A stretch of 64,000 nt of DNA from Gammaproteobacteria bacterium. Its GTDB lineage: Bacteria; Pseudomonadota; Gammaproteobacteria; Poriferisulfidales; Poriferisulfidaceae. A program made the translations under genes and the position numbers. This document shows, one piece after another, positions 37,600 to 57,079 of the stretch; the first letter of the stretch is position 1, and each line of letters begins with the position of its first letter. Location of the stretch: positions 72,373 through 136,372 of the forward strand of contig JAPOXW010000027.1 in the NCBI GenBank assembly GCA_026706895.1, read 5' to 3'. Under the pieces are notes generated by a model. The model did not search any database. It was given only the letters and a program-made list of their open reading frames with translations, and had not been told where the DNA came from.

Positions 37600-37821
37600 T
37601 TAACTGGTTGGTATGGAAGCAACCAAGCCTACTTCTTCCGCAACTTTCTCAGAAACCAAGGTTCGTTGCGCCCCGGTGCCCAGAAGTGAAGGATATGAGT
37701 TTTTAGGCGGGCCGTTGCTGCCCGGAACCGAGGTCGCAGAAGCAAGAATTATTTGACCGTTTTTAACTTCCCCCACGAAAGTCGGCATCCCTACACTCCC
37801 TGCGTGGAGGTGGGAACACAC
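37600..37821 (-). pseudogene. Retropepsin-like aspartyl protease remnant (truncated, active-site Asp not preserved)
   Basis: 73-aa ORF with LLGTGAQRTLVSEKVAEEVGL, resembling the bacterial clan-AA DTGA loop but with Asp replaced. It is far shorter than the ~120-aa domain and overlaps the upstream ORF out of frame. AT-rich. Confidence 0.25.
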
Positions 37822-38066
37822 ATCGTGAATATTCCAAGAGATACCGGAGGCTCCCCAATTTTCTGAATTGAGAAGTTTCCTAGGCCATATCTCTCACATC
37901 CAATGTCGTAAGCATCGCCACTGTCGTTATAGACAGCCACCATTTCACCGTCGTGGAGCAACGCGACACGTCCGGGCTCTTTTGATTCCAACCTGCTTCT
38001 CACCGCCTCATATGCCTTGCGGTTTTTTTCAAGCTGATCATCAACATTGGGTTTTGTCTTATTCAT
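37791..38066 (-). CDS. Small hypothetical protein (DUF5678-like), AT-rich
   Basis: 91 aa from the ATG preceded by GGGGGAA. The VALLHDGEMVAVYNDSGDAY segment is reminiscent of DUF5678, but the assignment is weak. Confidence 0.3.
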   Translation of the reverse strand: MNKTKPNVDDQLEKNRKAYEAVRSRLESKEPGRVALLHDGEMVAVYNDSGDAYDIGCERYGLGNFSIQKIGEPPVSLGIFTMCVPTSTQGV

Positions 38067-38178
38067 CAATTCCCCCGCCTTGACTTTAGGATTGTACCGT
38101 AAATTAGCATATGTTTCGGTTGGTTGTTGACGGTCAGCAACCCTTACCAGACAGACCAAACTCAGCCAATCTTCCCTC

Positions 38179-41897: not shown

Positions 41898-42460
41898 GGC
41901 TGGATGCGGTCAATCCGCATTTCAAACCGCTCCAGGTCATCGCGCAGCCGGTCCACCTCGCGCACGAAGCGGTCGAGTTCGGAGGAGCTCGGCAGCAAGC
42001 CCGATTCCTCGTGCAGGTAGTCCCGGGCATTGCTTTCGGCCGCCCCGCCGAAATTACGGGCCACCTGCCGGCATTCCTCAAGGGTTCGCATCATCAGCCG
42101 GGCCGGCACGTCGCCAACGGCGCGCGACAGCAGTTCCTCCCAGTCGATATCCAAGGCGGCCAGAAAGTCGCGCAAATCCTGTGCGATCTCGCCCTCACCC
42201 TCCAGGTGGATCCCGTCGGCCCGGTCGCTGAGCACGTACCGGACGAAGGCCGCCAGATGCCCACGGACCGCAAGGTCTGCCTCTTCTCCCGGAGATTCCA
42301 GAGTCAATTTCCCGTCGTCGATGTGCAATCCGATGGAAGGCAGCGGCAGGAGTTCCAGCCGAATCGTGCGCCGGCCCATCGCACGCAGACGCTTCTGCGA
42401 CTCTTCGTCGGTGCGCAGGGCCTGGTCGATGAGGGCGGAAAGTGAAGCAAACATAAGCAT
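41894..42460 (-). CDS. ubiJ: Ubiquinone biosynthesis accessory factor UbiJ (SCP2 domain)
   Basis: 188 aa sitting immediately upstream of and overlapping ubiB, as yigP/ubiJ does in E. coli. N-terminal SCP2-like region. Confidence 0.65.
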
Positions 42461-42524
42461 ACAGCCGCTCTTGGAGCGACGGTCTCTTGTTTCAGATTAT
42501 AGATTGAGGATTCCAGTGGAGAAT

Positions 42525-43440
42525 TCAGACCACCCTTGGTCGTATCAGAATCTTTTGAGGCGAGGTTCGCGGCTGGCTATCTGTCGCATGACCAGCGTGA
42601 TCTTCTCCGCCTGCGGGTAGGCTGCGGCAAGCTTCTCCAGGAATCGGGCCCAGTCTGTTTTCGTCCTGCGCACGGTGACTTGGGTCATCCGCTTTCCCGC
42701 CAAGGGTTCGGTGGCCAGGAACACGGTGCCCGTGCCGAGACGGCGGTACTCGTAGTCCTGACGGGCATCCCGGCCCGGGCTCATCGGTATCGGCACGCGG
42801 GTCTCCCCGATCAGCTGGCGTGGCGTCTCGTCCATGCACACCACCGGAAAGGCCGGATCGTACGGACGACGGTACACCTCGAGCACCCGCTCCATGGCCG
42901 CCACGAAATGGCCATTGCCCTGCGGCGGAATCACCCAGCCGACCCGTCGCCAAGGCTTGAGTTCGTTTTTTTTAGCACGCGACGCACCGTCTCGTAGGAG
43001 ATGCTCTCGACATAACCCAGCTCCACCGCCCGGTCCGCCAACAGCCGCAAGGACCACTGGGCATGCCCCGAGGGAGGCGCCGTGCAACTCAAGGCCACCA
43101 GGCGCGCCTCGAACTCCCCGTCCGCCTTGCGCAGGTAAGTCGGCCGCTTGCCTTGGCGACCGCCCAGGGCCGCTTCCAGTCCCTCTTCGACAAAGCGCTT
43201 CTTCACCCGGTCCACCTTGCGAAGGCTGACCCGCAGGATGCCCGCGATCGATTCCCCGGTCGTCTGGCGTTCATTGAACTTCCCTGCATCGCAGTTCAGG
43301 AGAATCAAGGCGTTGATCACTTTCTGGGAAGCGTGAGAACCCTTGCGCGTCATCTCGCCCAGGTCCGATCGCTCCGACTGATCCAGGGTTACTACATAGC
43401 GTTTCATGGCTGCCCTTCCCTCCATGCAGGATAACACGGC
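42525..43440 (-). mobile_element. IS630-family insertion sequence remnant (two-ORF transposase, 3'-truncated)
   Basis: OrfA (42931-43437) has an HTH N-terminus. OrfB (42545-43087) carries the start of the DDE domain but ends prematurely. An A8 slippery run on the coding strand (T8 on plus at 42966-42973) falls in the orfA/orfB overlap, as at IS630 programmed -1 frameshift sites. Confidence 0.75.
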
Positions 43441-43520
43441 GGGATTTTAGCACCAACTATACGACATTAGATAGATGACATGACACTAGGTGTTATCTGT
43501 AGTATATTTACCCACGATCT

Positions 43521-44711
43521 GTGCACATTTCCCCCCGAACAATGTACTTACAAAGAACAGAGGATTTGAGAAACGAGATTGTTGGCATCCTCCGCCTACA
43601 GGGCTATACCGTTACTGACCATGCCTTTCACTTAGTCGATCCTGGCAAGGAAAAAATGAGGAACCTTCATTCTAGAGCCCGAGCAGAAAAAATCTGCCGG
43701 CACATCAATTTCATGCAGTCACGTGCCTGTAAAGTCAAAGAATTCATGCTTAACAGCGATGAGGTACAGATTGACAAGATCGCCCCCCGGATTATTGAAG
43801 TTCGTGCCAACTCAATCTATGTAGATTTGTTTCGATGGTGGAACCTAGCTTGGTGGAGCCTGCCATATGAACGGACTTATGGAAGACAAATGCGGTTTAT
43901 CGTCTGGGATGAATATCATAATGCGCCAATCGGGTTGATTGGATTGCAAAGTCCGATTTTGCGCTGGAACGTTCGAGACGAACATCTTGGCCTCGCTCCG
44001 GACAAAAGGGATTATTGGATTAACCAATCCATGAATGCGCAACGATTAGGCGCGTTGCCCCCATATAACAAATTCCTCGGCGGAAAACTCGTCGCTTATC
44101 TCATGATGTCTGATGAGATTCGTAAACAGTATCGGGAAAAATACAAAAACCGTGAAACAATCATGATGAAAAGGATGATCCCCCCTCATTTGCTGTTTAT
44201 TACCACAACTGGTGCATACGGGAAAAGCAGTGTTTATAACCGGTTGCGATTCAATGAGAGTCGAGTCTGTGAATTCATCGGCTACAGTCGGGGAAACGGT
44301 TCTTTCCACATACCTGACACACTATATGAAAGTTTGATACATCATCTCGATAAAAATGGGGTCAAAGTAGGTCGGGCTTTCGGTAGCGGTCCTTCTGCAA
44401 AGATCAAAAACATAGACCGGTCAATGCGTCTTTTGGGCTTTAGAAAAGGTAGCAGTCACGGCATCAAGCGCGCTGTCTACTTATTTTCTTTCGTCCAGAA
44501 CCTCCAATCAGTGATTCAGCACAATGAAACACCAATTTGGGAACAGCGTAATATCGATGAATTGACGCAATATTGGAAAGACCGGTGGGCGATAAAAAGA
44601 AATGGTGGCTATCCGAAGGAAAAACTAAGATTCAGGAAGGAAGAGTTCATGTGCTCAATGAAACAGGATTGGGAGCGTTGCAAAAAGTTAATTGAGAGCA
44701 ATCTACCATGA
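43521..44711 (+). CDS. Hypothetical protein, first gene of an AT-rich three-gene module ending in NurA-like and HerA-like genes
   Basis: 396 aa, AT-rich, with no TM segments or signal peptide. No family recognised by eye. Its stop overlaps the next ORF's start as ATGA. Confidence 0.5.
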   Translation: MHISPRTMYLQRTEDLRNEIVGILRLQGYTVTDHAFHLVDPGKEKMRNLHSRARAEKICRHINFMQSRACKVKEFMLNSDEVQIDKIAPRIIEVRANSIYVDLFRWWNLAWWSLPYERTYGRQMRFIVWDEYHNAPIGLIGLQSPILRWNVRDEHLGLAPDKRDYWINQSMNAQRLGALPPYNKFLGGKLVAYLMMSDEIRKQYREKYKNRETIMMKRMIPPHLLFITTTGAYGKSSVYNRLRFNESRVCEFIGYSRGNGSFHIPDTLYESLIHHLDKNGVKVGRAFGSGPSAKIKNIDRSMRLLGFRKGSSHGIKRAVYLFSFVQNLQSVIQHNETPIWEQRNIDELTQYWKDRWAIKRNGGYPKEKLRFRKEEFMCSMKQDWERCKKLIESNLP

Positions 44712-45898
44712 CGCAGGAAAATAAAGGCTATGCCTACCTGCCCGAAGATCTTCTAGTGCAAATACTTGGGAAAATCCCTGAAACCGCCGACCGGTTGGCA
44801 ACAAGTATTGAATTAAATAATGAGCAGGCAACCGCCGCCCGGAGGGTTCTGAAGGAAAGGGATCTGATCAGAGTCTGTCCCGACGGAAATCATACGGAAT
44901 CCATGATGGCAGCTGATGGGGCCTGTATCGTAGAACACAAAACCAGCGCAGACATTTTGCTTGCCATTGCGGTGGGAGTGGATGGCCTTTCTGATGAAGA
45001 TTCGTCAACATGGCCAGAAGGAGAAAGGCAATATCAGCACTGGCAAGCGGTCTTGCCCCATCATGTTGCCAATCCGAGATTGTCACAGGGGATTATGTTC
45101 TTGATGGAACTCAGCATACTTGCTGGAAATGATCGCGAAGTCAAAATCATGGATGGGTCGCATTTGACTTCCATACTCAAACTCAACAGCCTCTTGAGCG
45201 CCAATGATCAGGATGCGGCAGATCAACCATATGTCCAAGCACTTTCGGATTTCTTACACGAGAATTACGAAAAAGTGATTCCAGACATTCCGAATATAAT
45301 TCGTGACGCTTTTTCCGATAGTGCGGTGGTTGGATTGACCAAATATTCTTCTTCCCGCGAGATTATTGATACAGTTTTACGAGAGACACAAATCGATATG
45401 GACGATAAAGTGTTTATGTCAATCGTCCTGAATGAGAACGAATATACGAAACCGCTCACAGTTGGACAATGCCGCAAGGAACGAGGTATGTGGAAAAACG
45501 TACACATGAAATGCAATCTGGAGATTGAGGGGGTAGACAATGACTCGGAACTAAATCCATGTCTGGAAGAGGCTATTGCCCCATTCAAGATAACGGATAA
45601 TCACGAATCAGAACTTTACTTTTGCTATTACAAGCCGAATTCATACTCATCAGCTCACAGGATTGAAATCAAACAGGAACTTGCGCTTGATTCAGGAAAA
45701 TTGGAAAAAATGTTCCGGAGTGTCAAGCGTCAAATTATCTCTCCAGAAATCAGGGAGCCATACCCCCAGTACCTAGCAGACATCATAGCCAAAAACATCT
45801 CTTTCGGTATGGAAGCGATAAATCAGGCTATCAGCCACAACCCGACTCTTAATACCCAGAAGAATTTTGATTTGATTTTTCCTTACCGCACTAACTGA
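44708..45898 (+). CDS. Probable NurA-family nuclease
   Basis: 396 aa. Assigned mainly by its conserved pairing immediately upstream of a HerA-type ATPase, plus DG[SL] acidic motifs (VGVDGLSDED, KIMDGSHL). Fold not verified. Confidence 0.4.
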   Translation: MTQENKGYAYLPEDLLVQILGKIPETADRLATSIELNNEQATAARRVLKERDLIRVCPDGNHTESMMAADGACIVEHKTSADILLAIAVGVDGLSDEDSSTWPEGERQYQHWQAVLPHHVANPRLSQGIMFLMELSILAGNDREVKIMDGSHLTSILKLNSLLSANDQDAADQPYVQALSDFLHENYEKVIPDIPNIIRDAFSDSAVVGLTKYSSSREIIDTVLRETQIDMDDKVFMSIVLNENEYTKPLTVGQCRKERGMWKNVHMKCNLEIEGVDNDSELNPCLEEAIAPFKITDNHESELYFCYYKPNSYSSAHRIEIKQELALDSGKLEKMFRSVKRQIISPEIREPYPQYLADIIAKNISFGMEAINQAISHNPTLNTQKNFDLIFPYRTN

Positions 45899-45920
45899 AA
45901 AACAAACGTTCACGACTAAC

Positions 45921-47627
45921 ATGAATATTATTTCTATTCTTGAAAGCGATAATGAACCGCTGGGAGTAGTCGGTTCTCCGAGCAGTTCTTTTGAGGCAAT
46001 TGTTGATATAAAAGAAGTGAGCGAGTCAAGCAAACTGTTGGGAGAACTGGTATGTTTTCAGGTCCCAGAAGGCGACAATCAAGTGCTTGTCCTCGGCCAG
46101 ATTACTGAAATCGAGACCAGAAACAGATGGCATGAGGAACCGTCATTTAAGGGAATCATCAAGCGGCACGGGAATCTGCCCAATCTGAGCGGTGTTGCCG
46201 ACAATCGAATCGCCAAAATTAATGTCCAATCCAGTTTCATCCTGGCCGGTGATTCTCCGCAGGCACATAAACTTGCAAACTCTCCTACAACTGGCACTCC
46301 CGTGAAGAAAATAAGCAACACCATCATGGAAGAACTCATGAGGCAATATGAGGGCCATCTTGTCTGCCTTGGGACTGCCTACGACACGGATGTCAAAGTG
46401 CCATTCTGGTTCAGACATTTTGGCAGTCCGAGTGATGGAGGAGGGGGCGACGCTTATCACATTGGGGTTTTTGGTCGAACCGGGTCCGGCAAAACAACAA
46501 CTGCCGCTAACATGATTCTAGGATACGCCCGGAATAGGGAAAACATGAGTATTTTGATACTTGACCCACAAGAGCAATTTTATGAAGACAACAATGTACT
46601 ACCCGGAGGAAACAAATTCGAGGATGCAATAAAGCAAACCGGGATGCAGTTCAAAAAGTACAAGGTCCCAGAGGATATCGCCTTGCCCAATGATGAAAAA
46701 TTGTTCAGCGAACTGCTTTTGAATTACAACTTTGTAAGAAGGGCATTCAGATTGCACTCTTCGGAGAAACAGACGCTGATGGCGGAATCGATACAAGACT
46801 ACATTACAGGAAGAATGAATGATCCCAGTTTCATAATCGGAGATGAAAATAGTGATACTCTTCTTGCCAAGATGGTTCAAAAATTCAATGACGATGAAAA
46901 ATATCTTAAAAATGTCTATTCAAGCGGCCAGTACTTCAACAATCTAAAGAGACGAATTGAGAGCATGGTGGGGGACAGTGTAGATTCTGAAGCAAAGCAA
47001 ATATGGGCGCATGTCTGTAGCCTATTTAAATCTGATGGGAAAAAGGGGCTAGCTCAAGTGGTCGAATCAGTGGTAGGCAAGCCAAACAATCTTATTGTGC
47101 TCAACATCTCGGGAAGGCATGCCACAAGCGGGATGGAGTCCCTCCAAACACTCTTCATCAAGATTATCGAAGATGCCGTGAAGAAAAGGGGGGCAGATCT
47201 ATATGCCCAAGGAAGCCAAGCAAACTGTCTAGTCGTGCTAGACGAGGCTCACCGGTTTATCAGCACATACAGCTACGACCAAGAACTCAAGGACTTGACT
47301 ACTAGCATCGTTGATGCTGTCCGGACTACGCGGAAATATGGAATTGGCTATATGTTCATTACACAAACCATTGATTCGCTCCACGAGGAAATCAGAAGAC
47401 AGATCAGAATTTTTGCATTTGGGTATGGGCTCACGAGCGGTTCGGAGTTTCGCAAGATACAAGACACCATCAATGACGATACAGGGGCTAAATTTTACCG
47501 GTCCTTCATTGATCCATCGAGTAACAACAAGTTTCCGTTTATGTTTTATGGTCCGATTTCCCCTCTTTCCTTCACGGGAACACCTCTTTTTCTGGAAGTG
47601 GGCAAACAAATCAAGGACTTCCCTTAG
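45921..47627 (+). CDS. HerA-type (FtsK/HerA superfamily, DUF87) ATPase/helicase
   Basis: 568 aa. N-terminal HAS-barrel-like region. Walker A is GVFGRTGSGKTTTAANM and Walker B is CLVVLDEAHRF. The RKYGIGYMFITQ arginine-finger/sensor block is typical of HerA/VirB4-like ATPases. Confidence 0.8.
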   Translation: MNIISILESDNEPLGVVGSPSSSFEAIVDIKEVSESSKLLGELVCFQVPEGDNQVLVLGQITEIETRNRWHEEPSFKGIIKRHGNLPNLSGVADNRIAKINVQSSFILAGDSPQAHKLANSPTTGTPVKKISNTIMEELMRQYEGHLVCLGTAYDTDVKVPFWFRHFGSPSDGGGGDAYHIGVFGRTGSGKTTTAANMILGYARNRENMSILILDPQEQFYEDNNVLPGGNKFEDAIKQTGMQFKKYKVPEDIALPNDEKLFSELLLNYNFVRRAFRLHSSEKQTLMAESIQDYITGRMNDPSFIIGDENSDTLLAKMVQKFNDDEKYLKNVYSSGQYFNNLKRRIESMVGDSVDSEAKQIWAHVCSLFKSDGKKGLAQVVESVVGKPNNLIVLNISGRHATSGMESLQTLFIKIIEDAVKKRGADLYAQGSQANCLVVLDEAHRFISTYSYDQELKDLTTSIVDAVRTTRKYGIGYMFITQTIDSLHEEIRRQIRIFAFGYGLTSGSEFRKIQDTINDDTGAKFYRSFIDPSSNNKFPFMFYGPISPLSFTGTPLFLEVGKQIKDFP

Positions 47628-47636
47628 CACAAAACA

Positions 47637-48416
47637 ATGCCTATTTACAACCGTCTGCTTCTTCTGGGTCTGCTGGCTTCACTCGGTGGAATCATACATG
47701 CCGCAGATTTGCCGTTCTCCTTGGGCGCGGACTCCGGGCTGCAGATCGCCGTGCGACTGATTCCGGACAAGACCCCAGAAGAACCGTCATCGGACGGCAG
47801 TATCGAGGAAGAGGGCGCGGAATCTCCGGAACAGGCGGAAGAAGGTGCGCCTTCCGCACAAACTCCCGGTGTCCCGGCCTCACAGGAGGACCGCGGCGAA
47901 GATCAAGGCCTTTTGGAGAGTCCGGAAGAGGGTCAGCCGGCCGCAGGCCAGGAAACCGCCGGTGAAACCGAAGGTCCCGGTATCGAAGACGGGCTCGAAA
48001 GGGAACCGGAACTTGCGGAACAGGCCAGTATCGAAGAAGGGCAAGAGAAGGATCTGTCCCGAATCGAGGCCGTGTTGAACCGTGTTGACCAGATCCTGCT
48101 GGACGCGCGAACCCGAGCCCGCAAAGAGCGGGAAGGAACAGTCGATGGCGAAGGGACAGCAGAAGAAGATTTGCCGGATTGGGAGACACAGGGCGAAGGC
48201 GAAGGGGAAGCTGCGGAGGAAGGAGCCGAACGCGGCGGAGTCGCCGAGGGCCAGGTCCCCGGCGATGTCCCGACCGGCAAGACGCGTCCGACTCACGGCT
48301 ACGAGGGTGACGACGACATCGTGACCCGGCAGGTCTGCGAACTGGCGCAACGGGAGGAAGATCCCGAGGTCCGCAAACAGCTGGAGCAAAAATGCAAGAG
48401 CCTGCGAGACAGTTAA
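47637..48416 (+). CDS. Secreted acidic low-complexity protein (first gene of the envelope operon)
   Basis: Signal peptide MPIYNRLLLLGLLASLGGIIHA, then a Glu/Gly/Pro-rich disordered region and a C-terminal Cys pair. Host-like GC. Its stop overlaps the next ORF. Confidence 0.5.
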   Translation: MPIYNRLLLLGLLASLGGIIHAADLPFSLGADSGLQIAVRLIPDKTPEEPSSDGSIEEEGAESPEQAEEGAPSAQTPGVPASQEDRGEDQGLLESPEEGQPAAGQETAGETEGPGIEDGLEREPELAEQASIEEGQEKDLSRIEAVLNRVDQILLDARTRARKEREGTVDGEGTAEEDLPDWETQGEGEGEAAEEGAERGGVAEGQVPGDVPTGKTRPTHGYEGDDDIVTRQVCELAQREEDPEVRKQLEQKCKSLRDS

Positions 48417-49576
48417 CCCTGATGGCCTTGCTGCTGGCCTTCGCCAGCGGATGCCAGACCGGCATGTCCGGCATCACCGGGGGCCTGTTCGAAGCATCGT
48501 CGGAAGAGCCGGCCGTCGAGCCGGTGCCGGAAGAATGGTATCTGGATGCCGGCATTATCCGGTTCAAGGGGGAAGTCGACCAAAAGGAAGTCGCCGAGGG
48601 GGACGTGTTCCCCCAGGTGCGGAAAGCCGAAACCCTGTACTTTCCCCAGCAGTTGCGCCAAGCGATGCTGCGCGGGGGTGGCTGGCGGCATGTGTGGGTG
48701 GTGCCGGAACGCGCCGTTCCGGACCTGCGCATCGAGGGCGCGATCCTGAAATCGAACGGCTCCGAACTGGATCTGAAAATCCTTGCCACCGACTCGACCG
48801 GCGAGCAGTGGCTCGATCGCGTCTATCGCCATGAATTCAGCGAAACCGATTACGCCGGCGAAGATCGGGCCCGGCCGATGGAGGCCCTGTTCGACCAGAT
48901 CGCAAAAGATCTCCTGGTCGAACGCGACCGCAAGGGAGTAGCGGCCATGAAGGAGATCCGCGCCGTGGCGGAACTGCGGTTCGCGGAGGAATTCGCACCG
49001 CAGGCGTTCGAACGTTACGTCAATGAAGATAAGGGCCGCACGCGCTTGGTTTCGCTGCCGGCCGAAGAAGACACGTTGTACCAGCTGGTGCTGCAAATCA
49101 AGGAGCGCGACGACCTCTTCATCGAGACCCTGCAGCAATACTCGGAGGGTTTTTCGGAAAAGATCGATGCGTCGTATCGGGACTGGGCACGGCAGAGCTT
49201 CTACGAACGCCGTGCGCATGACGAGGGAGTTGCCGCCAGCGTAACGCAGGGGCTTCTGAGCGCCCTGGCCATCATTGGCGGAGTCGTGGTGGCGGCCGAC
49301 TCAGGGTCTTCCCCGGAAGCCCGCCAGCTTGGCCAAGTGCTGGTGGGGGCCGGCGCCTACGGCGCCTATGATGCCTACCAGGACTACGAAGCAACGGAAA
49401 TCCACGAGGCCGCGCTCAAGGAGCTCGGGCAGTCGCTCGACCTGGAGGTGGAACCTCAGGTCGTGCAAGTAGAGAACCAGACACGCACGCTTACCGGGTC
49501 GGTCGAAGACCAGTACCAGCAGTGGCACGAAATCCTGAACGAAATCTACCTGTCGGAACGTGGCGCCCTGAACTGA
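48392..49576 (+). CDS. Lipoprotein of unknown function
   Basis: Signal peptide with lipobox (LLLAFASGC). 394 aa with no recognised domain. Translationally coupled on both sides. Confidence 0.55.
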   Translation: MQEPARQLTLMALLLAFASGCQTGMSGITGGLFEASSEEPAVEPVPEEWYLDAGIIRFKGEVDQKEVAEGDVFPQVRKAETLYFPQQLRQAMLRGGGWRHVWVVPERAVPDLRIEGAILKSNGSELDLKILATDSTGEQWLDRVYRHEFSETDYAGEDRARPMEALFDQIAKDLLVERDRKGVAAMKEIRAVAELRFAEEFAPQAFERYVNEDKGRTRLVSLPAEEDTLYQLVLQIKERDDLFIETLQQYSEGFSEKIDASYRDWARQSFYERRAHDEGVAASVTQGLLSALAIIGGVVVAADSGSSPEARQLGQVLVGAGAYGAYDAYQDYEATEIHEAALKELGQSLDLEVEPQVVQVENQTRTLTGSVEDQYQQWHEILNEIYLSERGALN

Positions 49577-50301
49577 TTTCGGTTGCACTGGCGCTGGCGG
49601 CGGGACTGGCCGCAGGAACCGCCGCGGCCGAGAGCATCCAGGATCAGGCGCTTCGTGCCATGCTTGATTCGAACTGGGCCCGGGCGGTCGAGTTGTGGGC
49701 GGAAGTGGACGGGCGACGAGCCCGGGAATACCTTCAGCAGGCTCGGGCGGAACTCCAGTTTCAGCGAACCCGGTCCCTGCTGAACGAGGCCCGTGCAGCC
49801 CGACAGAAAGAAGACTGGGCGGCGGCCGATGCCGCCTACCTCAAGGCGCTGGCCATCTCCCCCCATTTGAAGTCGGCGCACCAAGGCCGAGAACAGGTTG
49901 CCCTGTACATCGAGGCATACCGGCGGCTGGATGCATTGAAACTGCCGGAAGGCCTCTACGACAAAGTCATCCGCGCCCGAGCGAAAGAGTGGCTTGCCTT
50001 CATCCGAGAAAAACAACTCGATGACCGGAAGATAGACAAGGCCCGCACGGGACTTGTCGAGGCATTGAAGCTTGCGCAAACCCCGGTCTCCCTGATCCTG
50101 ACTTCGGACAACCAGTCCGAGATTGAAATTTACGGCATCGGGAAACTCGGACGGCTCGAACGCCAGACCCTGAAGTTGGTCCCGGGCGATTACATCGTCG
50201 TCGCCAACCGACCCGGATACCGAGATACGCGCGCGACGTTGAGAATACGCCCTGGTAAGGCTCTTACCCTGGACATTCGATGCACGGAGTCGATCCGGTG
50301 A
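49522..50301 (+). CDS. Secreted protein with C-terminal PEGA domain
   Basis: N-terminal hydrophobic signal-like segment, a helical/TPR-like middle, and a C-terminal PEGA-type beta-sandwich motif (LKLVPGDYIVVANRPGYRDTRATLRIRPGK). Confidence 0.5.
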   Translation: MARNPERNLPVGTWRPELISVALALAAGLAAGTAAAESIQDQALRAMLDSNWARAVELWAEVDGRRAREYLQQARAELQFQRTRSLLNEARAARQKEDWAAADAAYLKALAISPHLKSAHQGREQVALYIEAYRRLDALKLPEGLYDKVIRARAKEWLAFIREKQLDDRKIDKARTGLVEALKLAQTPVSLILTSDNQSEIEIYGIGKLGRLERQTLKLVPGDYIVVANRPGYRDTRATLRIRPGKALTLDIRCTESIR

Positions 50302-52115
50302 TTCTCGAGCACGAACCGATCCAGGCCAAACCATATCGGCCGCCCAAGCGGGAAAGGCGCCGCAAGCGACCTTCGGCCCCCCGATTTCGCGGGGCGGGAC
50401 TGGCGATTCTGATCCTGGCACTGATAACGGCAGGCGCCTGGTACGCCATGGAACAAGCGCAACTCATCAGCTTCGAGACCGACCCCGCAACCGCCACGGT
50501 GCATCTCGAGAGCCCGCACATGATGATGAACGGGCAAGCCTTGCTCTGGCGCGGGCAACATGTCGCGAATGTGGAAGCAGAAGGCCACCATCCCCGGCAG
50601 ATCGAATTCCAGGCGGGTGGAGACGCGCCGCGCACCGTGCAGGTCACTCTGGACCCCTTGCCGGGCAAACTCCGGGTCTCCACGACCCCTGAAACCGAGG
50701 GGGAAGTCCGGGTCGACGGCGAACACGCCGGGAAGATCGGAGAAATACTGGAGGATTTCTCTCCGGGCCGGCATGTCGTGCAGGTCAGTGTGGAGGGCTT
50801 CGAAATGCACCGGCAAACGGTAGAAATCGAGGGATACGGCCAATTGACCGAGATCGAGATTTCGCTCCAGAAAGTCGCGGAACCCGCCTTGTTGACGATT
50901 TCCAGTACCCCCGAGGCCGCGGACATATTGATCGATGGCACCTGGCGGGGGCGGACCCCGAAACGGGTCGTATTGACCCCGGGGGCCAAGGTGGAAGTCG
51001 CCCTGTTATTTCCTGGCCATACCCCGGATCGGCAGACTCTAGAGTTGAAGTCCGGCCGGCAAAACCACGCAGTGACCCTGACGCCGCGACTCGGCGCCCT
51101 TGAACTCTGGCCGATGCCGGCCAATGCGACGGTCCGGATCGGCGGGCAGGTGGAACTTCGGCGCCAGTTGCAGTTGACGCAGCGAACCCATACCGTGGAG
51201 GTTTCCGCGCCGGGCTATGTAACGAAGAAATACACCGTGGTGCCTCATCCGGACACCCCGAAGCAGCTTTTCGCCGTCTTGCAGTCGCAAGCGAAGGTCG
51301 AACAATCCCGGCGCCAGAAGCATGAACAGGATCTCGGGCTGGTCTTCGTCGAGTTCCAGCCCCGCGACTCGTTCGAACTCGCGACCACGCGCCGCCGAAT
51401 CCCGGTGCGCCTAACCCGACCATTCGCGATCATGGACAAGGAAGTCACCAACGCCCTATACCGACGCTACCGGGCCGAACATGATTCCGGAGAAGTGTTC
51501 GGCAAGCGCCTGGGCCGCCCAAGCCAACCCGTGGTGCGGATCAGCTGGGCGGATGCGGCATTGTTCGCGAACTGGATGAGCGGGCGGGCGGGGGTTGCGC
51601 CGTTCTACCGGGTGCGCGACGGGAAAATCGTGGGATTCGACGCGCAGGCAACCGGATACCGGCTGCCGAGTGAGGCCGAATGGGTCTGGTTGACCCGTTC
51701 CGGAAAGCGGTATGCCTGGGGCGACTTCATGCCGCCCCCGGACCGGTTCGGCAATCTGGCGGACGCTTCCGCCTCCGACATCGTGCAGCCGACGCTGGAA
51801 GGATACAACGACGGGTACGCCGTCAGTGCCGACGTCGGAAGCTTCCCGCCTTCGGGCCAGGGGTTGTATGATTTGCCGGGCAACGTGGCGGAATGGATGC
51901 ACGACGTGTTTCTCGACAAGCTGCGGGTCTCGGCCCGCCCGGAGACGGAGCGAGTCAACCCGCTGGGCGAGGCCAGCGGGCGGTTCTATGTCATCCGGGG
52001 ATTCAGCTGGCGCGACGGCGGGCGCAAGGAGTTGAGCCTGAACAACCGCCGCTACGACCGCGATCCCAAGGACGATGTGGGATTTCGGCTGGCTTATTAC
52101 CTGGACAAGCCATGA
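50280..52115 (+). CDS. Membrane-anchored PEGA-repeat protein with C-terminal FGE-sulfatase domain
   Basis: 611 aa with a basic N-terminus and one TM helix (AGLAILILALITAGAWYAM). Three or four PEGA repeats (e.g. ISSTPEAADILIDGTWRGRTPKRVVLTPGAKVEV). The FGE-sulfatase hallmarks are RISWADAALFANW, YRLPSEAEWVWL, GNVAEWMHD, RVIRGFSW and DVGFRLA. Confidence 0.8.
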   Translation: MHGVDPVILEHEPIQAKPYRPPKRERRRKRPSAPRFRGAGLAILILALITAGAWYAMEQAQLISFETDPATATVHLESPHMMMNGQALLWRGQHVANVEAEGHHPRQIEFQAGGDAPRTVQVTLDPLPGKLRVSTTPETEGEVRVDGEHAGKIGEILEDFSPGRHVVQVSVEGFEMHRQTVEIEGYGQLTEIEISLQKVAEPALLTISSTPEAADILIDGTWRGRTPKRVVLTPGAKVEVALLFPGHTPDRQTLELKSGRQNHAVTLTPRLGALELWPMPANATVRIGGQVELRRQLQLTQRTHTVEVSAPGYVTKKYTVVPHPDTPKQLFAVLQSQAKVEQSRRQKHEQDLGLVFVEFQPRDSFELATTRRRIPVRLTRPFAIMDKEVTNALYRRYRAEHDSGEVFGKRLGRPSQPVVRISWADAALFANWMSGRAGVAPFYRVRDGKIVGFDAQATGYRLPSEAEWVWLTRSGKRYAWGDFMPPPDRFGNLADASASDIVQPTLEGYNDGYAVSADVGSFPPSGQGLYDLPGNVAEWMHDVFLDKLRVSARPETERVNPLGEASGRFYVIRGFSWRDGGRKELSLNNRRYDRDPKDDVGFRLAYYLDKP

Positions 52116-52330
52116 AACGGTTCTGGTGGGTATCCCTGTACGCGGCGACGTCTCTGGCGTGGGCCGAAGAGCCTCCTGCACCGCAAGCGGAAGACGAGGA
52201 GCGCGAAGTCATCGAAGTCCTGACCGAAGAGGACCTCAAGCGGGAAATCCCACAGATCACGCTCAAGCAATTGACCCCGAAAGAAACCATTTCCCTTGAT
52301 CAAGCCGTGGATATGCCCAGTGACATTTGA
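52112..52330 (+). CDS. Small secreted acidic protein
   Basis: 72 aa. Signal peptide MKRFWWVSLYAATSLAWA then an acidic tail. ATG overlaps the upstream stop as ATGA. Confidence 0.4.
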   Translation: MKRFWWVSLYAATSLAWAEEPPAPQAEDEEREVIEVLTEEDLKREIPQITLKQLTPKETISLDQAVDMPSDI

Positions 52331-53201
52331 ATTGAACAATCTGACCGGGCGCTGGCGCGAACACGAAGTGTTCTGGCAATTGCTGGCATTAGCGGTGTCG
52401 TTCGTGCTGGTGCATGCAGCATATGAACTGGTGGTGCGACCCGTCGCCTACGAGGAACTGCAACGTCAGGCCGTCGCCGAGGAACAAGCCGAAATCGCAT
52501 CGCCAACGCTCGGCGCACGGGTCTCCGTGGTCGTCAAGGACTACGAGCAGGAAGCCTGTTTTGTCGCCCTGTTCTGGGCGCTCGCCATCATGTGGATGAA
52601 GCTGATGAAGCTGCGCTTCGCGCGAAGGCTGCTGAGCCAGCGTGGCCGACAAAACGAGGAAAGTTTCCTGGAAACCCGGGAAACCGATCTGGTCCTGCCT
52701 CAGGCGCACGACCGGGCGCGTTTCACCGACGTGCGAGAGCATGTGCGAATGCAAGGCTACGGCAGTACCGTGCTCTATCGGGCTGCCGATGCCTGTCTGG
52801 ATCGCTTCTTCACGACGCATTCCGTATCGGACGCCACTGCGGCCATGAAGGCCAGTTGCGAGATGGAGTCGGACCGGCAGGACACCGAACTGGCGCTGGT
52901 GCGCTACCTGACCTGGGCCATTCCGTCGCTTGGATTCATCGGCACGGTGCGCGGGATCGGTGCAGCCCTGGGGCAGGCCGAAGAAGCCACGCGCGGCAAC
53001 ATCGGACCGGTGACGGAAAGCCTTGGCGTGGCATTCAATTCAACGTTTGTCGCCCTGCTGATCAGCCTGTTCATCATGCTGCTGCTGCACAAACTGCAGG
53101 AAGCCCAGGAGTCGCTGGTACTGGATGCCCAGGAGCATTGCCAGCACCACCTGCTGCGTTACCTGCGGGAGCGGACGCGGACGGATGAGCCTTCTTCTTA
53201 G
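52296..53201 (+). CDS. MotA/TolQ/ExbB-family proton channel protein
   Basis: 301 aa, three TM helices. The C-terminal signature LTWAIPSLGFIGTVRGIGAALG...IGPVTESLGVAFNSTFVALLISLF aligns with ExbB/TolQ (GLFGTVWGI...APGIAEAL.ATAIGL.AAIP). The start is approximate and overlaps the upstream ORF. Confidence 0.8.
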   Translation: MIKPWICPVTFELNNLTGRWREHEVFWQLLALAVSFVLVHAAYELVVRPVAYEELQRQAVAEEQAEIASPTLGARVSVVVKDYEQEACFVALFWALAIMWMKLMKLRFARRLLSQRGRQNEESFLETRETDLVLPQAHDRARFTDVREHVRMQGYGSTVLYRAADACLDRFFTTHSVSDATAAMKASCEMESDRQDTELALVRYLTWAIPSLGFIGTVRGIGAALGQAEEATRGNIGPVTESLGVAFNSTFVALLISLFIMLLLHKLQEAQESLVLDAQEHCQHHLLRYLRERTRTDEPSS

Positions 53202-54096
53202 GATCGACAGCTACGCGCTGGCACAGCCCGACGGCACCGACTGGCGGGTCGAGTGGTGCCTTGCCCATCGGGATTCAAAAGACGGTTGGCGATTCGGTAA
53301 AGACGCCGGTGAACGGCTGCAGCCCCGACGCACCGACAACGAAAACAACGAATACCTGGAAACACCGGAGACGGTAGAAGGCCAAGGCACATCGAATAGC
53401 GACCTTGCGTATCTACAGTTACGGGGATTCCTGCCGGAAGAGGAAAACTCGATCGATCTTTCGGTGAGCGGAGGAATCGACCGGTCCCGGCTCGAATGTC
53501 TGCTGGGTGTTCTGGAAGCCTTGAGCTACACACCCCGAAGTGTATTCCCGACCGCGCTGCTGGCGGCCCGGAACCTTGAGCCCGGACGCTACGGCATTAT
53601 TGAACTTGGACGCAGCCGCAGTTGGATCAGTGCCGTTGACGTCCAGCCGGGTCGTGCGCGACTGGAATCGGTCCAGGATTACGGGGATTTCGGCTTCTAT
53701 CACCTCTTCACCCAATGGGTGGAGAACGCGGCGGAAGCCTTCGCCGCCCAGCACCGTTTCGACATACATCGCAACCTCGCGACAAACCGCGGACAACTGT
53801 TCGAACAAATGTGCCAAGGCTTCGCCGGGAAATCCGGACAGATCCAGCTCAATCTGGATTCCCGGCCCGTGACGCTGGACGAAAAAGTCTTTCAAGCCCG
53901 CTGGCCGAAGTCTTCTCTCGACACGGAGGGGCTGGGCCTCCTGCTGCTGCCTCCTCTGACACGGGCGTTGCCGCTGCCGGAACAGGGGTTGGATCTCCCT
54001 CTCTGTGCCAACCCCGCGCCTCGGGCCGTCTTCAACCTGGACGCCTCCGTGCCGGAAGACGGACAAGCCCACCGTTGCGTGGCTCTCTCCTGCTGA
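53185..54096 (+). CDS. Hypothetical soluble protein embedded between the ExbB-like and ExbD-like genes
   Basis: About 304 aa from MSLLLRIDSY. No TM segment and no recognised domain. Coupled to both neighbours. Confidence 0.45.
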   Translation: MSLLLRIDSYALAQPDGTDWRVEWCLAHRDSKDGWRFGKDAGERLQPRRTDNENNEYLETPETVEGQGTSNSDLAYLQLRGFLPEEENSIDLSVSGGIDRSRLECLLGVLEALSYTPRSVFPTALLAARNLEPGRYGIIELGRSRSWISAVDVQPGRARLESVQDYGDFGFYHLFTQWVENAAEAFAAQHRFDIHRNLATNRGQLFEQMCQGFAGKSGQIQLNLDSRPVTLDEKVFQARWPKSSLDTEGLGLLLLPPLTRALPLPEQGLDLPLCANPAPRAVFNLDASVPEDGQAHRCVALSC

Positions 54097-55140
54097 ATGT
54101 CCAGACGCCGCCGCAGCCGTTTCCTGAACCCGTTCGGCCTAGCTTTCCTGGATGTCATGTCCTGCGGGCTGGGGGCTGCGGTCCTGTTGTTCCTGATTAT
54201 CGACCACAACCTAACCGAACTGGCGCAGGCATCGGAGAGCGGCGAGGGAGATGTGCAACTGCTGGAGCAATCGATCCAGGAACAGGAAGAACTGATCACC
54301 GAGCACCGCAGACAGATGCGGCAACTGCAGCGCGAGCTGGAAAGCCTGGCACAGCAGCGCGTGGCCGCCATCACCACCCAAGCCGAACTTCGCGCCCGCC
54401 AACCGAAGGCGTCCGATACGGCTCGACTTGAACGTGAACTGCGCGAGCGCAAGAAGAAACTCCAAGAAGCGGAGAAAAGCAAGCAACTGAGGGCGAAAGA
54501 AGGAGAAGGGCAACGCCAGTACGTAGCCGGCTTCCGAGTCGAGGGCCGTCGCATTCTGATCCTGTTGGATCGATCGGCCAGCATGCAGGACGAGCGAATC
54601 GCCACGATCATCCGAAACAAGTTTCTCCCGGTGAAATACCAGATCGAGAGCTACAAGTGGCGCTGGGCGCGTTCCATCCTCGAGTGGGTTCTCTCGCACC
54701 TGCCGCAAGAGGCGCAATACCAGGTCTGGGGGTTCAGCACGACGGCAGCGCCAGCGTTGCCGAAGAGCGGGTGGATTCCGGCAAAAGACGGGAAACGGAT
54801 GGAAGAGGTGGTTTCGGCCGTGCAGGGCTGGGTCCCCTCAGGAGGAACCCGCCTCGATACGACCCTCAAGAAGATCGCCCAGATCAAGCCAAGGCCGGAC
54901 GCGGTCTATCTGATTACGGACGGCCTGCCGACGCAGGGAAAATCCTGGTTCAAGAAAAACCGGGTCAGCCCTTCCCGGCGCATGGAGTTTTTCCGAGAAG
55001 CAACGGGAAGCATCGCAGGCCCGCCTTTCAACATCGTCCTGCTTCCGCTTGAAGGCGATCCGGCGGCAGCCGGGGCTTACTGGGGATTTGCGATGAGGAC
55101 GAACGGGCAATTCCTGGCCCCGGCGGAGGACTGGCCATGA
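54097..55140 (+). CDS. ExbD/TolR-like TM anchor, coiled coil and periplasmic vWA domain protein (paralog 1)
   Basis: N-terminus RRRRSRFLNPFGLAFLDVMSCGLGAAVLLFLII matches the ExbD/TolR TM helix with conserved Asp (cf. PLIDVMLVLLIIFM). A long coiled coil follows. The vWA MIDAS motif is LLDRSASM (DxSxS), followed by YLITDG. Confidence 0.7.
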   Translation: MSRRRRSRFLNPFGLAFLDVMSCGLGAAVLLFLIIDHNLTELAQASESGEGDVQLLEQSIQEQEELITEHRRQMRQLQRELESLAQQRVAAITTQAELRARQPKASDTARLERELRERKKKLQEAEKSKQLRAKEGEGQRQYVAGFRVEGRRILILLDRSASMQDERIATIIRNKFLPVKYQIESYKWRWARSILEWVLSHLPQEAQYQVWGFSTTAAPALPKSGWIPAKDGKRMEEVVSAVQGWVPSGGTRLDTTLKKIAQIKPRPDAVYLITDGLPTQGKSWFKKNRVSPSRRMEFFREATGSIAGPPFNIVLLPLEGDPAAAGAYWGFAMRTNGQFLAPAEDWP

Positions 55141-56102
55141 GGCGCGTCCGCCGGCAAGCCGACAACCGTTTGTCGTTCCTTGACGTGGTCAGCTGCGGGT
55201 TCGGGGCCATGGTGTTGCTGATCCTGATTACCAAAAACACCGTGGGCGAGCCGGTCGAAGACCTTCGAGCCCAAATCGAAGCGCTGCAAGAACAACTCGC
55301 ACGCGTCATCCAAGTCCGGGCAAGTCTGGCGGCCGAACAATTTTCGGCGCAAGCCCGGGTACACGCCCAGCAGGAGAAACTGCAGGACGACCGGAGGGCC
55401 GTAGAAGAAGCGCGGCAGGCGAGCGCCAGCGCCCAGGCGCAGGCCTTGATCGAAGCAGACCTGAAGAGCGCTCTGCAGCGCCTCAACGAAGAAATGCGGC
55501 GGCTGAACCTGACTGCATCCGAATCGGACGTGATCGGCGGCATCCCGGCCGACAGCGAATACATCATCTTTATCGTCGACACGTCCGGCAGCATGAAACG
55601 GTTTGCCTGGAAGGCCGCCAGACAGCAGTTGGTGGCCCTACTGGACGCCTACCCGAAAGTGCGCGGACTCCAGGTGATGAACGACATGGGCGCATACATG
55701 TTCAGCGGCTACCAGGGGCGCTGGATCCCGGACACGCCCGCACGGCGGAAGATCCTCCTGCAGCGTTTTGATTCCTGGCATTCGTACAGCAATTCGAGCC
55801 CCGTCGAAGGCATCCTGGAAGCCATCAAGCGGTTCCGCATGAAGTCCGACAAGATCAGCCTGTACATCTTCGGCGACGAATACACCGGCGAGTCGATCCA
55901 GTGGGTCATCGACACGGTCGAGGATCTCAACCACCGGGATGGGAAGCGGCAGGTCCGCATTCATGCGGTCGGGTTCTTCACCCGCGCGCAGATCGAGAAG
56001 ATCGACCCGAAATATGCCGACACGACAAGCCGATTCGCGGCATTGATGCGGGAGTTGACCCGGCGCAACGGAGGGACTTTCCTAGGCGTCGAAGTGGACT
56101 GA
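55137..56102 (+). CDS. ExbD/TolR-like TM anchor, coiled coil and periplasmic vWA domain protein (paralog 2)
   Basis: N-terminus LSFLDVVSCGFGAMVLLILI (ExbD-like, conserved Asp), then a coiled coil. The vWA MIDAS motif is IFIVDTSGSM (DxSxS). Start overlaps the paralog-1 stop. Confidence 0.7.
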   Translation: MRRVRRQADNRLSFLDVVSCGFGAMVLLILITKNTVGEPVEDLRAQIEALQEQLARVIQVRASLAAEQFSAQARVHAQQEKLQDDRRAVEEARQASASAQAQALIEADLKSALQRLNEEMRRLNLTASESDVIGGIPADSEYIIFIVDTSGSMKRFAWKAARQQLVALLDAYPKVRGLQVMNDMGAYMFSGYQGRWIPDTPARRKILLQRFDSWHSYSNSSPVEGILEAIKRFRMKSDKISLYIFGDEYTGESIQWVIDTVEDLNHRDGKRQVRIHAVGFFTRAQIEKIDPKYADTTSRFAALMRELTRRNGGTFLGVEVD

Positions 56103-56116
56103 CTCCTTGAGAATGC

Positions 56117-56192
56117 TGGTGGACCCAGGGGGAATCGAACCCGCCGTTACTGCCGTGAAAGGGCAGTGTGCTAACCGCTACACTATGGGTCC
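56117..56192 (-). tRNA. tRNA-Glu (anticodon UUC)
   Basis: Reverse complement is GGACCCATAGTGTAGCGGTTAGCACACTGCCCTTTCACGGCAGTAACGGCGGGTTCGATTCCCCCTGGGTCCACCA. Cloverleaf with anticodon loop CTTTCAC, T-loop GGTTCGATTCC and an encoded CCA. Confidence 0.85.
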
Positions 56193-56328
56193 TACACAGA
56201 AAGAAACGCCTCCAGAGGAGGCGTCGGGCCAGCGATACTCTCACTAGCGGGGAAGCGTATTGTAGCGCGCTTTTTCTACCTAAATCTAGTCAGAGTCAGC
56301 CTACGCAGTCTCAGCCTAAATCCGAGAA

Positions 56329-57069
56329 TCACGCAGCAAGCGGAACGAAATCTCCGCTGGCCATTGGTTCATGCTCAACCCAGCGGCCGCTCATTTCAAT
56401 CAGAACGTGCTGGCTCAACGGTGCGGGTTGCGGGTTGACCTTTACCACATGTGCGGAATATGTCGGAGACTCGGTCATTGCGTCAACAATATTTTCCATA
56501 AGGTAGCGCGGAATCCAGCCAATCGCGTGGTGGTGCTTCGTTTGAATTTGCACAACCGGCCGAGTCGCCAAGTCGGTCTGTTCCAAGGCGATATGTAGCT
56601 CTTCTCCTTTTTTTAATTGGTCAATCCTCTGAAGAGCCGATGCGCTTGCGTCTTGCAAGCCCTGCAGCAGGAAACGGCATGTGAAACTTCCGTCTTTATC
56701 TTTCTCGATTTTCGGAAAGACTTCATAAAAATCCGTAACGCGACGACCACCATTTACCGACAAAATTTCGACGGAGTCTGCGCTTTCCGGCAGATCAAGG
56801 CAGTCAAGATATTGCGCGCGGGCTGGCCTGCCTCTGGCAATGACCCGGTTCCTGAAAATAGCAAAAAGCTCGGGAGATTGATAGTCCCCTTTCATGTCCG
56901 GAAAGTCGTACAGCGGAGGGAACCCGACTTCCCGGCTCGCCCGTTCTGCGCCAGCCGTGTATCGGAACCGGAACCGGGGCAAATCGGTCTCTGCATCCAG
57001 CCTTCCGATCGGAAACCAGTGCCGACGTTCTTTGTCGCGCCAACCCAGGTACATAGTTTGCTCATTCAC
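56329..57069 (-). CDS. Hypothetical protein between ubiE and tRNA-Glu
   Basis: 246 aa with host-like GC and no TM. No family recognised. Starts 10 nt after the ubiE stop. Confidence 0.4.
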   Translation of the reverse strand: MNEQTMYLGWRDKERRHWFPIGRLDAETDLPRFRFRYTAGAERASREVGFPPLYDFPDMKGDYQSPELFAIFRNRVIARGRPARAQYLDCLDLPESADSVEILSVNGGRRVTDFYEVFPKIEKDKDGSFTCRFLLQGLQDASASALQRIDQLKKGEELHIALEQTDLATRPVVQIQTKHHHAIGWIPRYLMENIVDAMTESPTYSAHVVKVNPQPAPLSQHVLIEMSGRWVEHEPMASGDFVPLAA

Positions 57070-57079
57070 CGGCCAGATT

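Follow-up and report, generated by a model that had tools for sequence, protein, structure and literature searches.

The 64,000-nt stretch of contig JAPOXW010000027.1 analysed here (hereafter, the window) carries the genes ubiE, ubiJ and ubiB, and a first-pass annotation had read the 14.6 kb between ubiE and ubiJ (42461-57079) as one composite island that landed at a tRNA-Glu gene and split the ubiE-ubiJ-ubiB operon. Our comparison with related loci indicates that this interval very probably consists of three layers of different age, namely (i) an ancestral nine-gene envelope operon (genes e1 to e8 and a 72-aa gene), (ii) a 5.1-kb insert between e1 and ubiJ, which holds a truncated IS630-family insertion sequence (IS) and a cassette of druA, nurA-like and herA-like genes with low guanine-plus-cytosine (GC) content, and (iii) a variable patch between ubiE and e8. 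Since the relatives already hold the envelope operon, what was recently inserted comes down to 42.51-47.63 kb and, apart from it, a 1-kb patch; variation is confined to 42511-47630 and 56103-57079, and the interval does not behave as one inserted unit.

Results

The envelope operon between ubiE and ubiJ

Twelve relatives' loci were fetched after UbiJ and UbiE protein searches, which returned graded uncultured relatives from 98% down to 55% identity (the loci compared with the window are labelled L001 and L082-L098). The ENA metagenome scaffold ROBB21-1_SAMN13943208_METAG-scaffold_89 (183 kb) is 100% identical to the window. The closest species-level genome is a metagenome-assembled genome (MAG) of Candidatus Porisulfidus (UbiE 70%), the rest of the species collection remaining at or below 60%. 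As a sponge metagenome yielded a MAG of this genus (PMC12988363), the window organism is probably sponge-associated.

The annotated positions and common strand of ubiE, ubiJ and ubiB are borne out by Pfam profile matches, and all three genes are present; ubiJ was assigned on SCP2, a sub-cut-off NCBIfam UbiJ match and its position overlapping ubiB. From ubiJ to ubiE, the interval holds in order the IS630 open reading frames (ORFs), the low-GC block, the nine-gene operon, tRNA-Glu(UUC) and a 246-aa gene, and the parts listed in the first-pass annotation (IS630 remnant, AT-rich HerA module, nine-gene operon with host-like GC, tRNA-Glu) are all there. Both flanks and the envelope operon have a GC content of 0.61-0.62, compared with 0.63 for the IS, 0.446 for the cassette and 0.54 for 56103-57079. 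As annotated, no recombinase lies within 42461-57079. The DUF971 gene and xerC precede ubiE, and xerC, which stands outside the interval, is a housekeeping gene and not an island integrase because it is part of the block dapF-DUF484-xerC-DUF971-ubiE, kept in relatives and outgroups.

In L087, L088, L089, L001/L084 and L094 (UbiE identities of 97, 88, 83, 70 and 67%), the operon occupies the same place and orientation, the order being the dapF-to-ubiE block, a variable gap, e8 to e1 on the opposite strand and, where the locus extends that far, ubiJ-ubiB. In L085 and L086, the operon adjoins ubiJ and the e1-ubiJ side is identical in layout. When its gene order was compared with the orthologues in L084-L089, L091 and L094, synteny was found to be kept in these 8 relatives, and its GC content follows that of the host (0.56-0.72 for the relatives' loci). 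ubiJ-ubiB is itself collinear with L085, L086 and L091 at 84-91% nucleotide identity. The oppositely oriented operon parts ubiE from ubiJ-ubiB in the window and seven relatives, leaving no contiguity for co-transcription. Of 72 informative outgroup loci, 56 have ubiB on the strand of ubiE and no more than 4 kb downstream of it, in most cases with ubiJ in between, which agrees with the annotated adjacency of these genes in most gammaproteobacteria.

Because the envelope operon sits at the same place in the relatives and the outgroups are contiguous, the split of the ubi operon is, judged by gene order, a real, old and fixed shared derived character of the clade, and by the same synteny the envelope operon did not arrive as island cargo in any recent period. 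The annotated separation of ubiE from ubiJ-ubiB by inserted DNA thus holds for the deep history of the clade, when something did enter an arrangement that is contiguous in the outgroups, but not as a recent event. The operon would have been inserted in inverted orientation between ubiE and ubiJ before the clade diversified, so that ubiJ-ubiB would long have been under its own promoter, in a divergent control region of 67-79 bp shared with e1. The first-pass annotation expected related genomes to show an empty site with ubiE directly followed by ubiJ, and the relatives hold the envelope operon there. It had also considered that relatives lacking the cargo might keep the two genes apart by tRNA-Glu and the 246-aa gene; such relatives do keep them apart, and more strongly, by the whole envelope operon and not by those two genes.

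The insertion between e1 and ubiJ

In blastn alignments, window positions 38180-42510 and 47630/47652-56102 match L086 and L087 collinearly (91-92% identity), as they do L085 (83-84%), and where the window holds 5.1 kb, L085-L087 show an empty site of 20-45 nt. By these alignments, the strain-specific insertion is the 5.1-kb segment from 42511 to about 47630. The idea of successive insertions at hotspots, with the AT-rich part recent and foreign, agrees with GC content and empty sites. The IS remnant that had been placed at 42461-42545 does contain real IS630 sequence, but 42461-42510 is native ubiJ upstream DNA and the IS remnant extends from 42511 to about 43470.

The native e1-ubiJ intergenic region measures 67-79 nt and contains two outward-facing boxes, i.e., CTATAAT on the ubiJ side (36 nt before the ubiJ start) and (C/G)TATAAT on the e1 side (about 10 nt before the e1 start). 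Both are kept in L085-L088, and the Porisulfidus locus L084 keeps the ubiJ-side box and has TAAAAT on the e1 side. The 5.1-kb insert would have been placed exactly between these two back-to-back boxes. On the ubiJ side, the -10 box (TATAAT at 42501-42496, minus strand), which is common to L084-L088, is retained in the window, and the annotated need of ubiJ-ubiB for a new promoter falls away with this native box. ubiJ would use the old -10 box with a foreign -35 region, and transcripts running on from the IS transposase gene, which is co-oriented, may add to its expression.

On the other side, the herA stop codon is followed by CACAAAACA and then by the e1 ATG; the native e1 TATAAT box is gone from the window, and no terminator-like or promoter-like site was found at 47300-47800. 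A promoter-like site precedes druA (Table 1), its -10 part lying within the conserved left end of the cassette. Because the e1 box is lost, no terminator stands at the herA/e1 junction and druA has this promoter-like site, transcription of the window's envelope operon probably starts in the cassette and reads on into e1. The e1 -10 box would have been lost through a small deletion on the herA/e1 side, leaving the operon on the cassette promoter. A CAAAAC-type microhomology is common to the herA 3′ end and the e1 leader, and L091 keeps 350 nt that are missing from the window, which fits a secondary deletion in the window lineage.

The IS630 copy has a host-like GC content of 63%, and its alignment to the full 355-aa IS630 transposase of L089 ends near residue 266. 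It is missing from every relative compared (among them L085-L088 and L091), also from those that bear the cassette. Loci L082 and L083, from two other samples, are 99.95-100% identical to the window from uvrD into the IS, and as their contigs end inside it, the IS630 element is suggested to be multi-copy; a second copy was not found in the window or the compared loci. The repeat search over 42-58 kb revealed no convincing terminal inverted repeat around the element, the 3′ end of which is deleted. We considered the IS as the vehicle of the cassette and rejected it, as L090, L091 and L093 carry the cassette without the IS and the IS has host-like GC. Since L091/L092 have the cassette in this position but no IS there, and given again the host-like GC of the element, we infer that IS630 arrived after the cassette. 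Note that the two IS630 ORFs overlap at an A8 run (42966-42975, coding strand), so that the two-ORF layout may reflect a programmed frameshift site rather than decay; whichever holds, the element is truly truncated at its 3′ end.

The DruA-NurA-HerA cassette

PDB sequence searches with the DruA and NurA-like proteins gave no match, and the NurA assignment was made via fold search, in which the model of the NurA-like protein matched S. solfataricus NurA (13.5), Thermococcus HerA-NurA (10.2), TdpB of the TdpAB complex (8.0) and Deinococcus NurA (7.6). Its residues D70, E134, D149 and H152 are invariant, in agreement with an active site of acidic residues and His, and over 400 proteins of the protein collection belong to its family. 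The HerA-like protein shows a Walker A motif (GRTGSGKT) at residue 185 and a Walker B motif (LVVLDE) at residue 437, a weak sequence match to PDB HerA 8wiv (2.8e-05) and another weak match to TdpA, and its top PADLOC matches are defence-associated HerA families. The nurA-herA gap is 23 nt, and the adjacency of the genes is conserved in 7 contexts.

Indeed, six other contexts were found to hold the three genes in this order, with protein identities as low as 31-35%. L091/L092 hold it at the same e1-ubiJ site, without the IS and with a 171-aa membrane ORF, 350 nt of extra DNA and an intact e1 TATAAT box. In L090 it lies between fur and acs in another genome of 61% GC, in L093 between a small-terminase gene and a NUDIX gene, and in L096 and L097 at two loci with a 39% GC background, while L098, an IMG/VR contig of 66% GC with 31-35% protein identity, has it beside a siphovirus Gp37-like tail gene. 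In the latter (UViG_3300028104_000061, 4473-12103), the triad is translationally coupled to a 1088-aa MmeI/Eco57I-like N6-adenine methyltransferase, and L098 may represent a four-gene, modification-linked and prophage-borne variant. Homology between the window cassette and the others starts at 43489/43491 and ends at 47606-47634. When ends and target motifs were compared across contexts, only the druA promoter region was common, with no terminal repeats and no conserved flanks. The five measured copies (window, L090, L091, L093 and L097) have a GC content of 41-46%, in flanks of 37-62%. A single-protein scan of viral contigs yielded no cassette, and an alignment-based scan yielded one distant locus, L098; a scan of JGI metagenomes with NurA yielded two loci only, too few for co-occurrence statistics.

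Because the triad recurs in six other contexts, we regard it as a candidate anti-phage module, most likely, as its context suggests, of the kind of the HerA-partnered defence complexes. A HerA hexamer acting as translocase would feed DNA to the NurA nuclease, and DruA would serve as sensor, regulator or modifier. To our knowledge, the role of DruA is not known even in Druantia. DUF4338 has been read as GNAT-like (PMC10853773). Literature searches found no description of a DruA-NurA-HerA triad.

The cassette was considered as a Druantia system and rejected as such, since DruE and DruB-D are missing from its three-gene content and its NurA- and HerA-like proteins match no Dru models; the same three-gene content without DruB-E was found in L090, L091 and L093. 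It shares with Druantia type I (DruA-E) a full-length DruA homologue, but it lacks DruE (the YprA-like helicase with DUF1998 that defines all Druantia types), DruB, DruC and DruD and has NurA and HerA. TdpAB (PDB 8wet), DUF4297-HerA (PMC11291478) and SIR2-HerA (PMC11472057, PMC11514289) have very low sequence similarity to the cassette, which differs from them by its strictly linked DruA/DUF4338 gene, by the absence of a SIR2 or DUF4297 effector and by the absence of dnd/phosphorothioation genes nearby. With the NurA-HerA end-resection complex of archaea and Deinococcus, it shares the folds and motifs of both proteins and the adjacent, co-oriented genes, but it differs in being mobile, low in GC, patchy, DruA-linked and without linkage to Mre11-Rad50.

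The junction between ubiE and e8

Collinearity with the relatives ends at the e8 stop codon (56102) and restarts at 57071-57080. The 246-aa gene in between, annotated as unknown, matches PADLOC PDC-M03B (6.6e-65). It starts 10 nt after the ubiE stop codon, has 78% identity to its L086 homologue and is an orphan: in L086, a HipA-like PDC-M03A gene (7.3e-55) overlaps PDC-M03B, and next to the window gene this partner kinase gene is absent, with no remnant. The terminator (56225-56205) is shared almost base for base with L086, and the tRNA-Glu gene with 14 further nt (90 nt) is present in the window and missing in L086. The window patch would therefore combine a degraded PDC-M03 system, reduced to the B gene, and a tRNA-Glu gene.

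The landing site that the first-pass annotation had seen in the tRNA 3′ end did not stand up to comparison, as no relative has a tRNA there and no att repeat exists. No tRNA was found at the ubiE-e8 or e1-ubiJ junctions of L001 and L084-L095, and no tRNA-Glu(UUC) near ubiE in 80 genome loci. The suggested search for a second tRNA-Glu 3′ segment at the ends of the island gave none in the window: a 25-nt pattern of this 3′ end, allowing up to 3 mismatches, matched only the tRNA itself over the whole window, and a search for direct and inverted repeats over 42-58 kb returned chance-level short matches only and no flanking direct repeat. A check for phage origin found no exact match to the tRNA-Glu in IMG/VR. 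Because it is absent in the relatives and has no 3′-end copy elsewhere in the window, the tRNA-Glu is, as the sequences read, part of the variable patch and not an attachment site.

The gap between ubiE and e8 holds nothing (79 nt) in L088, an outer-membrane protein (OMP) beta-barrel gene in L087, a PMT_2 glycosyltransferase gene in L089, a low-GC McrBC pair and a 284-aa gene in L001, an ISL3 element, UbiK (BMFP) and a polyprenyl synthase gene in L094, PDC-M03A (HipA-like kinase) and PDC-M03B in L086, and AT-rich DNA beside a GMC oxidoreductase gene in L085, a locus that stops short of ubiE. On this comparison, the convergent ubiE-e8 junction (56103-57079) is a second, hypervariable hotspot with cargo that differs in every relative. 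In L094 (10809-13445), the ISL3 transposase stands with two ubiquinone-related genes (BMFP/UbiK-type and polyprenyl synthase), and the hotspot therefore collects more than defence genes.

Some side observations concern the same junction. In L001 (3960-8993; Candidatus Porisulfidus OZ251520.1), the cargo is a 5-kb block of ~50% GC in a genome of 70-78% GC, with McrB-like AAA_5, McrC and the 284-aa gene, and an AbiEii-type AAA_21 ATPase gene (L001 69-1925) lies upstream of xerC. E. coli HipA targets glutamyl-tRNA synthetase. The window tRNA-Glu adjoins an M03 remnant whose partner in L086 (1-1350) is a HipA-like kinase, which may be a coincidence; the kinase-bearing strain (L086) is without tRNA-Glu, and the tRNA-bearing strain (window) is without the kinase.

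Other features of the region

Coordinates of the features are collected in Table 1. The envelope operon encodes a secreted protein, a lipoprotein, an FGE-sulfatase/PEGA protein, a 72-aa secreted peptide, a MotA/ExbB channel and two membrane-anchored vWA proteins; four of its proteins gave no Pfam, NCBIfam or PADLOC match. Three family-less proteins come first, followed by a GldK-like FGE-sulfatase/PEGA protein, the 72-aa peptide, MotA/ExbB, a 303-aa domainless protein and two vWA proteins with transmembrane (TM) anchors. This gene order, compared by order alone, resembles that of the gldK-L-M-N motor module of the type IX secretion system (T9SS).

Three further observations were made outside the interval. 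In the Porisulfidus locus L084 (12320-14328), HipA kinase and HTH genes lie between ubiB and uvrD, genes that are adjacent in the window and closer relatives, so that ubiB/uvrD forms a third small variable spot nearby. Downstream of uvrD (approximately 37496-38180 of the window), collinearity with L085, L086 and L091 is broken by a short strain-variable segment, in which two small ORFs (91 and 62 aa) are found on the source scaffold. Finally, L086, the relative of 91% nucleotide identity, carries at 18476-19930 an IS605 OrfB/TnpB (Cas12f-like) gene between a Zincin_1 gene and polA, a position at which the window has none.

Table 1. Features of the ubiB-xerC region, in window coordinates
Feature	Position	Strand	Evidence or remark
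uvrD	38179-40326	-	
ubiB	40353-41897	-	ABC1 1e-76
ubiJ	41894-42460	-	SCP2 5e-05; NCBIfam UbiJ 1.9e-07, under model cut-off
Native ubiJ upstream DNA	42461-42510	-	homology with L086, L087 and L085 to 42509/42510; native -35 region replaced
IS630-family element, 3′-truncated	42511 to about 43470	-	HTH_32 3e-15; DDE_3 1.3e-10, profile positions 1-85 of 146
IS630 partial DDE_3 ORF	42545-43087	-	
IS630 HTH ORF	42931-43437	-	overlaps DDE_3 ORF
Promoter-like site before druA	43480-43508	+	ATGACA-17-TATATT; 10/12 consensus matches
Low-GC three-gene cassette	43491-47627	+	4.1 kb; 44.6% GC versus 61-62% in the flanks
druA (DUF4338)	likely start 43542, end 44711	+	Pfam DruA 5e-63; PADLOC DruA PDLC00002 2.7e-81, end to end
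nurA-like	44708-45898	+	fold search
herA-like	45921-47627	+	DUF87/HerA 1.4e-09
herA/e1 junction	47628-47636	+	herA stop TAG 47625-47627; e1 start 47637 (9 nt after herA)
Nine-gene envelope operon	47637-56102	+	Pfam, NCBIfam, signal/lipobox/TM features, synteny
e1	47637-48416	+	
e2	48392-49576	+	
e3	about 49660-50301	+	
e4 (FGE-sulfatase/PEGA)	about 50298-52115	+	
72-aa gene (secreted peptide)	52112-52330	+	
e5 (MotA/ExbB)	52320-53201	+	
e6	about 53185-54096	+	
e7 (vWA)	54097-55140	+	
e8 (vWA)	55137-56102	+	
tRNA-Glu(UUC)	56117-56192	-	ARAGORN; Rfam 60.4 bits; 3′ end towards e8
Intrinsic terminator after PDC-M03B	56205-56225	-	9-bp stem, 6 GC pairs, T-rich tail
PDC-M03B (HIRAN-like), 246 aa	56329-57069	-	PADLOC PDLC04347 6.6e-65, profile 3-242 of 245
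ubiE	57080-57811	-	Ubie_methyltran 8e-79; last gene of dapF-DUF484-xerC-DUF971-ubiE block
xerC (tyrosine recombinase)	58208-59137		400 nt beyond ubiE

Discussion

The contiguity of the three ubi genes in outgroup gammaproteobacteria, the tRNA 3′ end facing the interval and the partly AT-rich composition would be expected if one 14.6-kb island had recently split an intact ubiE-ubiJ-ubiB at the tRNA-Glu and later lost its integrase. We consider this highly implausible, since relatives with UbiE identities as low as 67% have the 8.5-kb operon in this very place, tRNA-Glu is missing from the site in every relative, the tRNA itself is a 90-nt presence/absence difference against L086, no tRNA 3′ duplicate or flanking direct repeat was found, and the blocks of the interval have independent presence/absence patterns. 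It is also very improbable that the scaffold was misjoined through a multi-copy IS630 and that the cassette does not truly lie beside ubiJ: the contigs of L082 and L083 end inside the IS, which is probably repeated, and the IS-cassette junction comes from one assembly only, but the other end of the cassette joins e1 seamlessly in the same scaffold, two independent assemblies of a relative (L091 and L092) place the cassette between ubiJ and e1, and three assemblies agree on the ubiJ-IS junction, with 99.95-100% identity. As to function, the presence of the NurA fold and HerA motifs, together with the description of bacterial NurA-HerA as an end-resection complex (PMC9960219), would suit a repair module for double-strand break (DSB) end resection as in archaea and Deinococcus, with DruA as an unrelated neighbour. 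This appears unlikely for a cassette that is patchy among strains of ~91% nucleotide identity and foreign in GC, that is linked to a full-length DruA homologue in 7 of 7 contexts down to 31% identity, that has prophage genes and a restriction-type methyltransferase among its neighbours and no adjacent Mre11-Rad50 genes (L090, L091 and L093 loci), and whose HerA is closest in PADLOC to defence-associated families.

The history of the cassette at e1-ubiJ is less simple than its position. Any two of the window, L086, L087 and L091 have 91-93% identity in the flanks, and with L085 as outgroup the informative sites favour the grouping of L086 (empty) with L091 (occupied), both in the operon flank (74 versus 44/52; bootstrap 977/1000) and in the ubi flank (80 versus 30/42; bootstrap 1000/1000). 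Because the flank tree joins an empty with an occupied locus, cassette presence is, by these sites, incongruent with it, and the spot may have gained a cassette twice, gained one and lost it again by recombination, or received it from a more distant lineage through homologous recombination. A cassette inserted once in the ancestor of the window and L091, and kept as an old polymorphism while the empty allele returned to strains such as L086 and L087 through homologous recombination, is a serious contender that falls somewhat short of being probable. The window and L091/L092 agree in site and orientation, the window cassette is slightly nearer to L091 (84.3%) than to L090 (81.4%; either against L090, 81-82%), and the quartet counts contain much conflict, typical of recombination; on the other side, the cassettes (84%) are more diverged than the flanks (91%), their neighbours differ (IS630 and no spacer in the window versus the 171-aa ORF and a 350-nt spacer in L091), and a low GC retained in a 61% GC host points to a short residence time. 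The incongruence and the excess divergence of the cassettes weigh against our own layered reading with a defence cassette, as do several other observations. Clade member L095 has ubiE beside priA, and the arrangement is not universal; the IS-cassette junction (about 43440-43490) was seen only in the window's own metagenome scaffold; the promoters are predicted from consensus boxes and their conservation; the structural model of the NurA-like protein, which draws on 20 homologues, has a moderate mean predicted local distance difference test (pLDDT) score of 67; PADLOC has no match for the NurA-like protein and no system definition joining the three genes; and the defence role of the triad is drawn from its context alone.

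Compared with tRNA-targeting integrative islands (tyrosine integrase, attL/attR), the region is alike in having foreign, atypical cargo near a tRNA and an interrupted conserved order, but here an integrase and att repeats are lacking, the empty site of the relatives has no tRNA, most of the supposed cargo is ancestral, and what was really inserted sits in a promoter region between genes and where two convergent genes meet. For the pangenomes of E. coli, Vibrio and Pseudomonas, defence hotspots without an integrase are described between conserved core genes. The two positions studied here resemble them, being fixed and core-flanked, with defence-type cargo that varies by strain (DruA-NurA-HerA, PDC-M03, McrBC) and presence/absence patterns incongruent with the flank phylogeny. 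They differ from them in that the cargo is very small (0-5 kb), that one hotspot is a 20-nt divergent-promoter core where insertion would rewire transcription of the neighbouring operon, and that the organisms are uncultured and have reduced genomes.

Altogether, the region is ordinary bacterial hotspot biology around an old, lineage-specific gene order. What goes beyond the ordinary is an apparently undescribed conserved triad, an insertion in a divergent-promoter core with probable operon capture, and an unexplained strain-specific tRNA-Glu. A tRNA beside odd genes is thus insufficient for calling an island, the relatives having cut the ‘14.6-kb island’ to 5 kb and 1 kb. The split ubi operon provides a stable lineage marker for this symbiont clade, and two precise, integrase-less hotspots gather defence genes in reduced genomes. 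The region also offers a natural case of a putative defence cassette displacing a host promoter, in which expression of the envelope operon may be coupled to the cassette. We regard the uncharacterised triad as the most interesting part of the region. It could tentatively be, although we would put this rather on the doubtful side, an undescribed, self-contained and DruA-governed three-gene anti-phage system, which spreads without a recombinase in marine and sponge bacteria and which landed, possibly repeatedly, in the divergent-promoter core and captured the envelope operon. As such, the DruA-NurA-HerA triad is a testable candidate immune system and gives a handle on the role of DruA.

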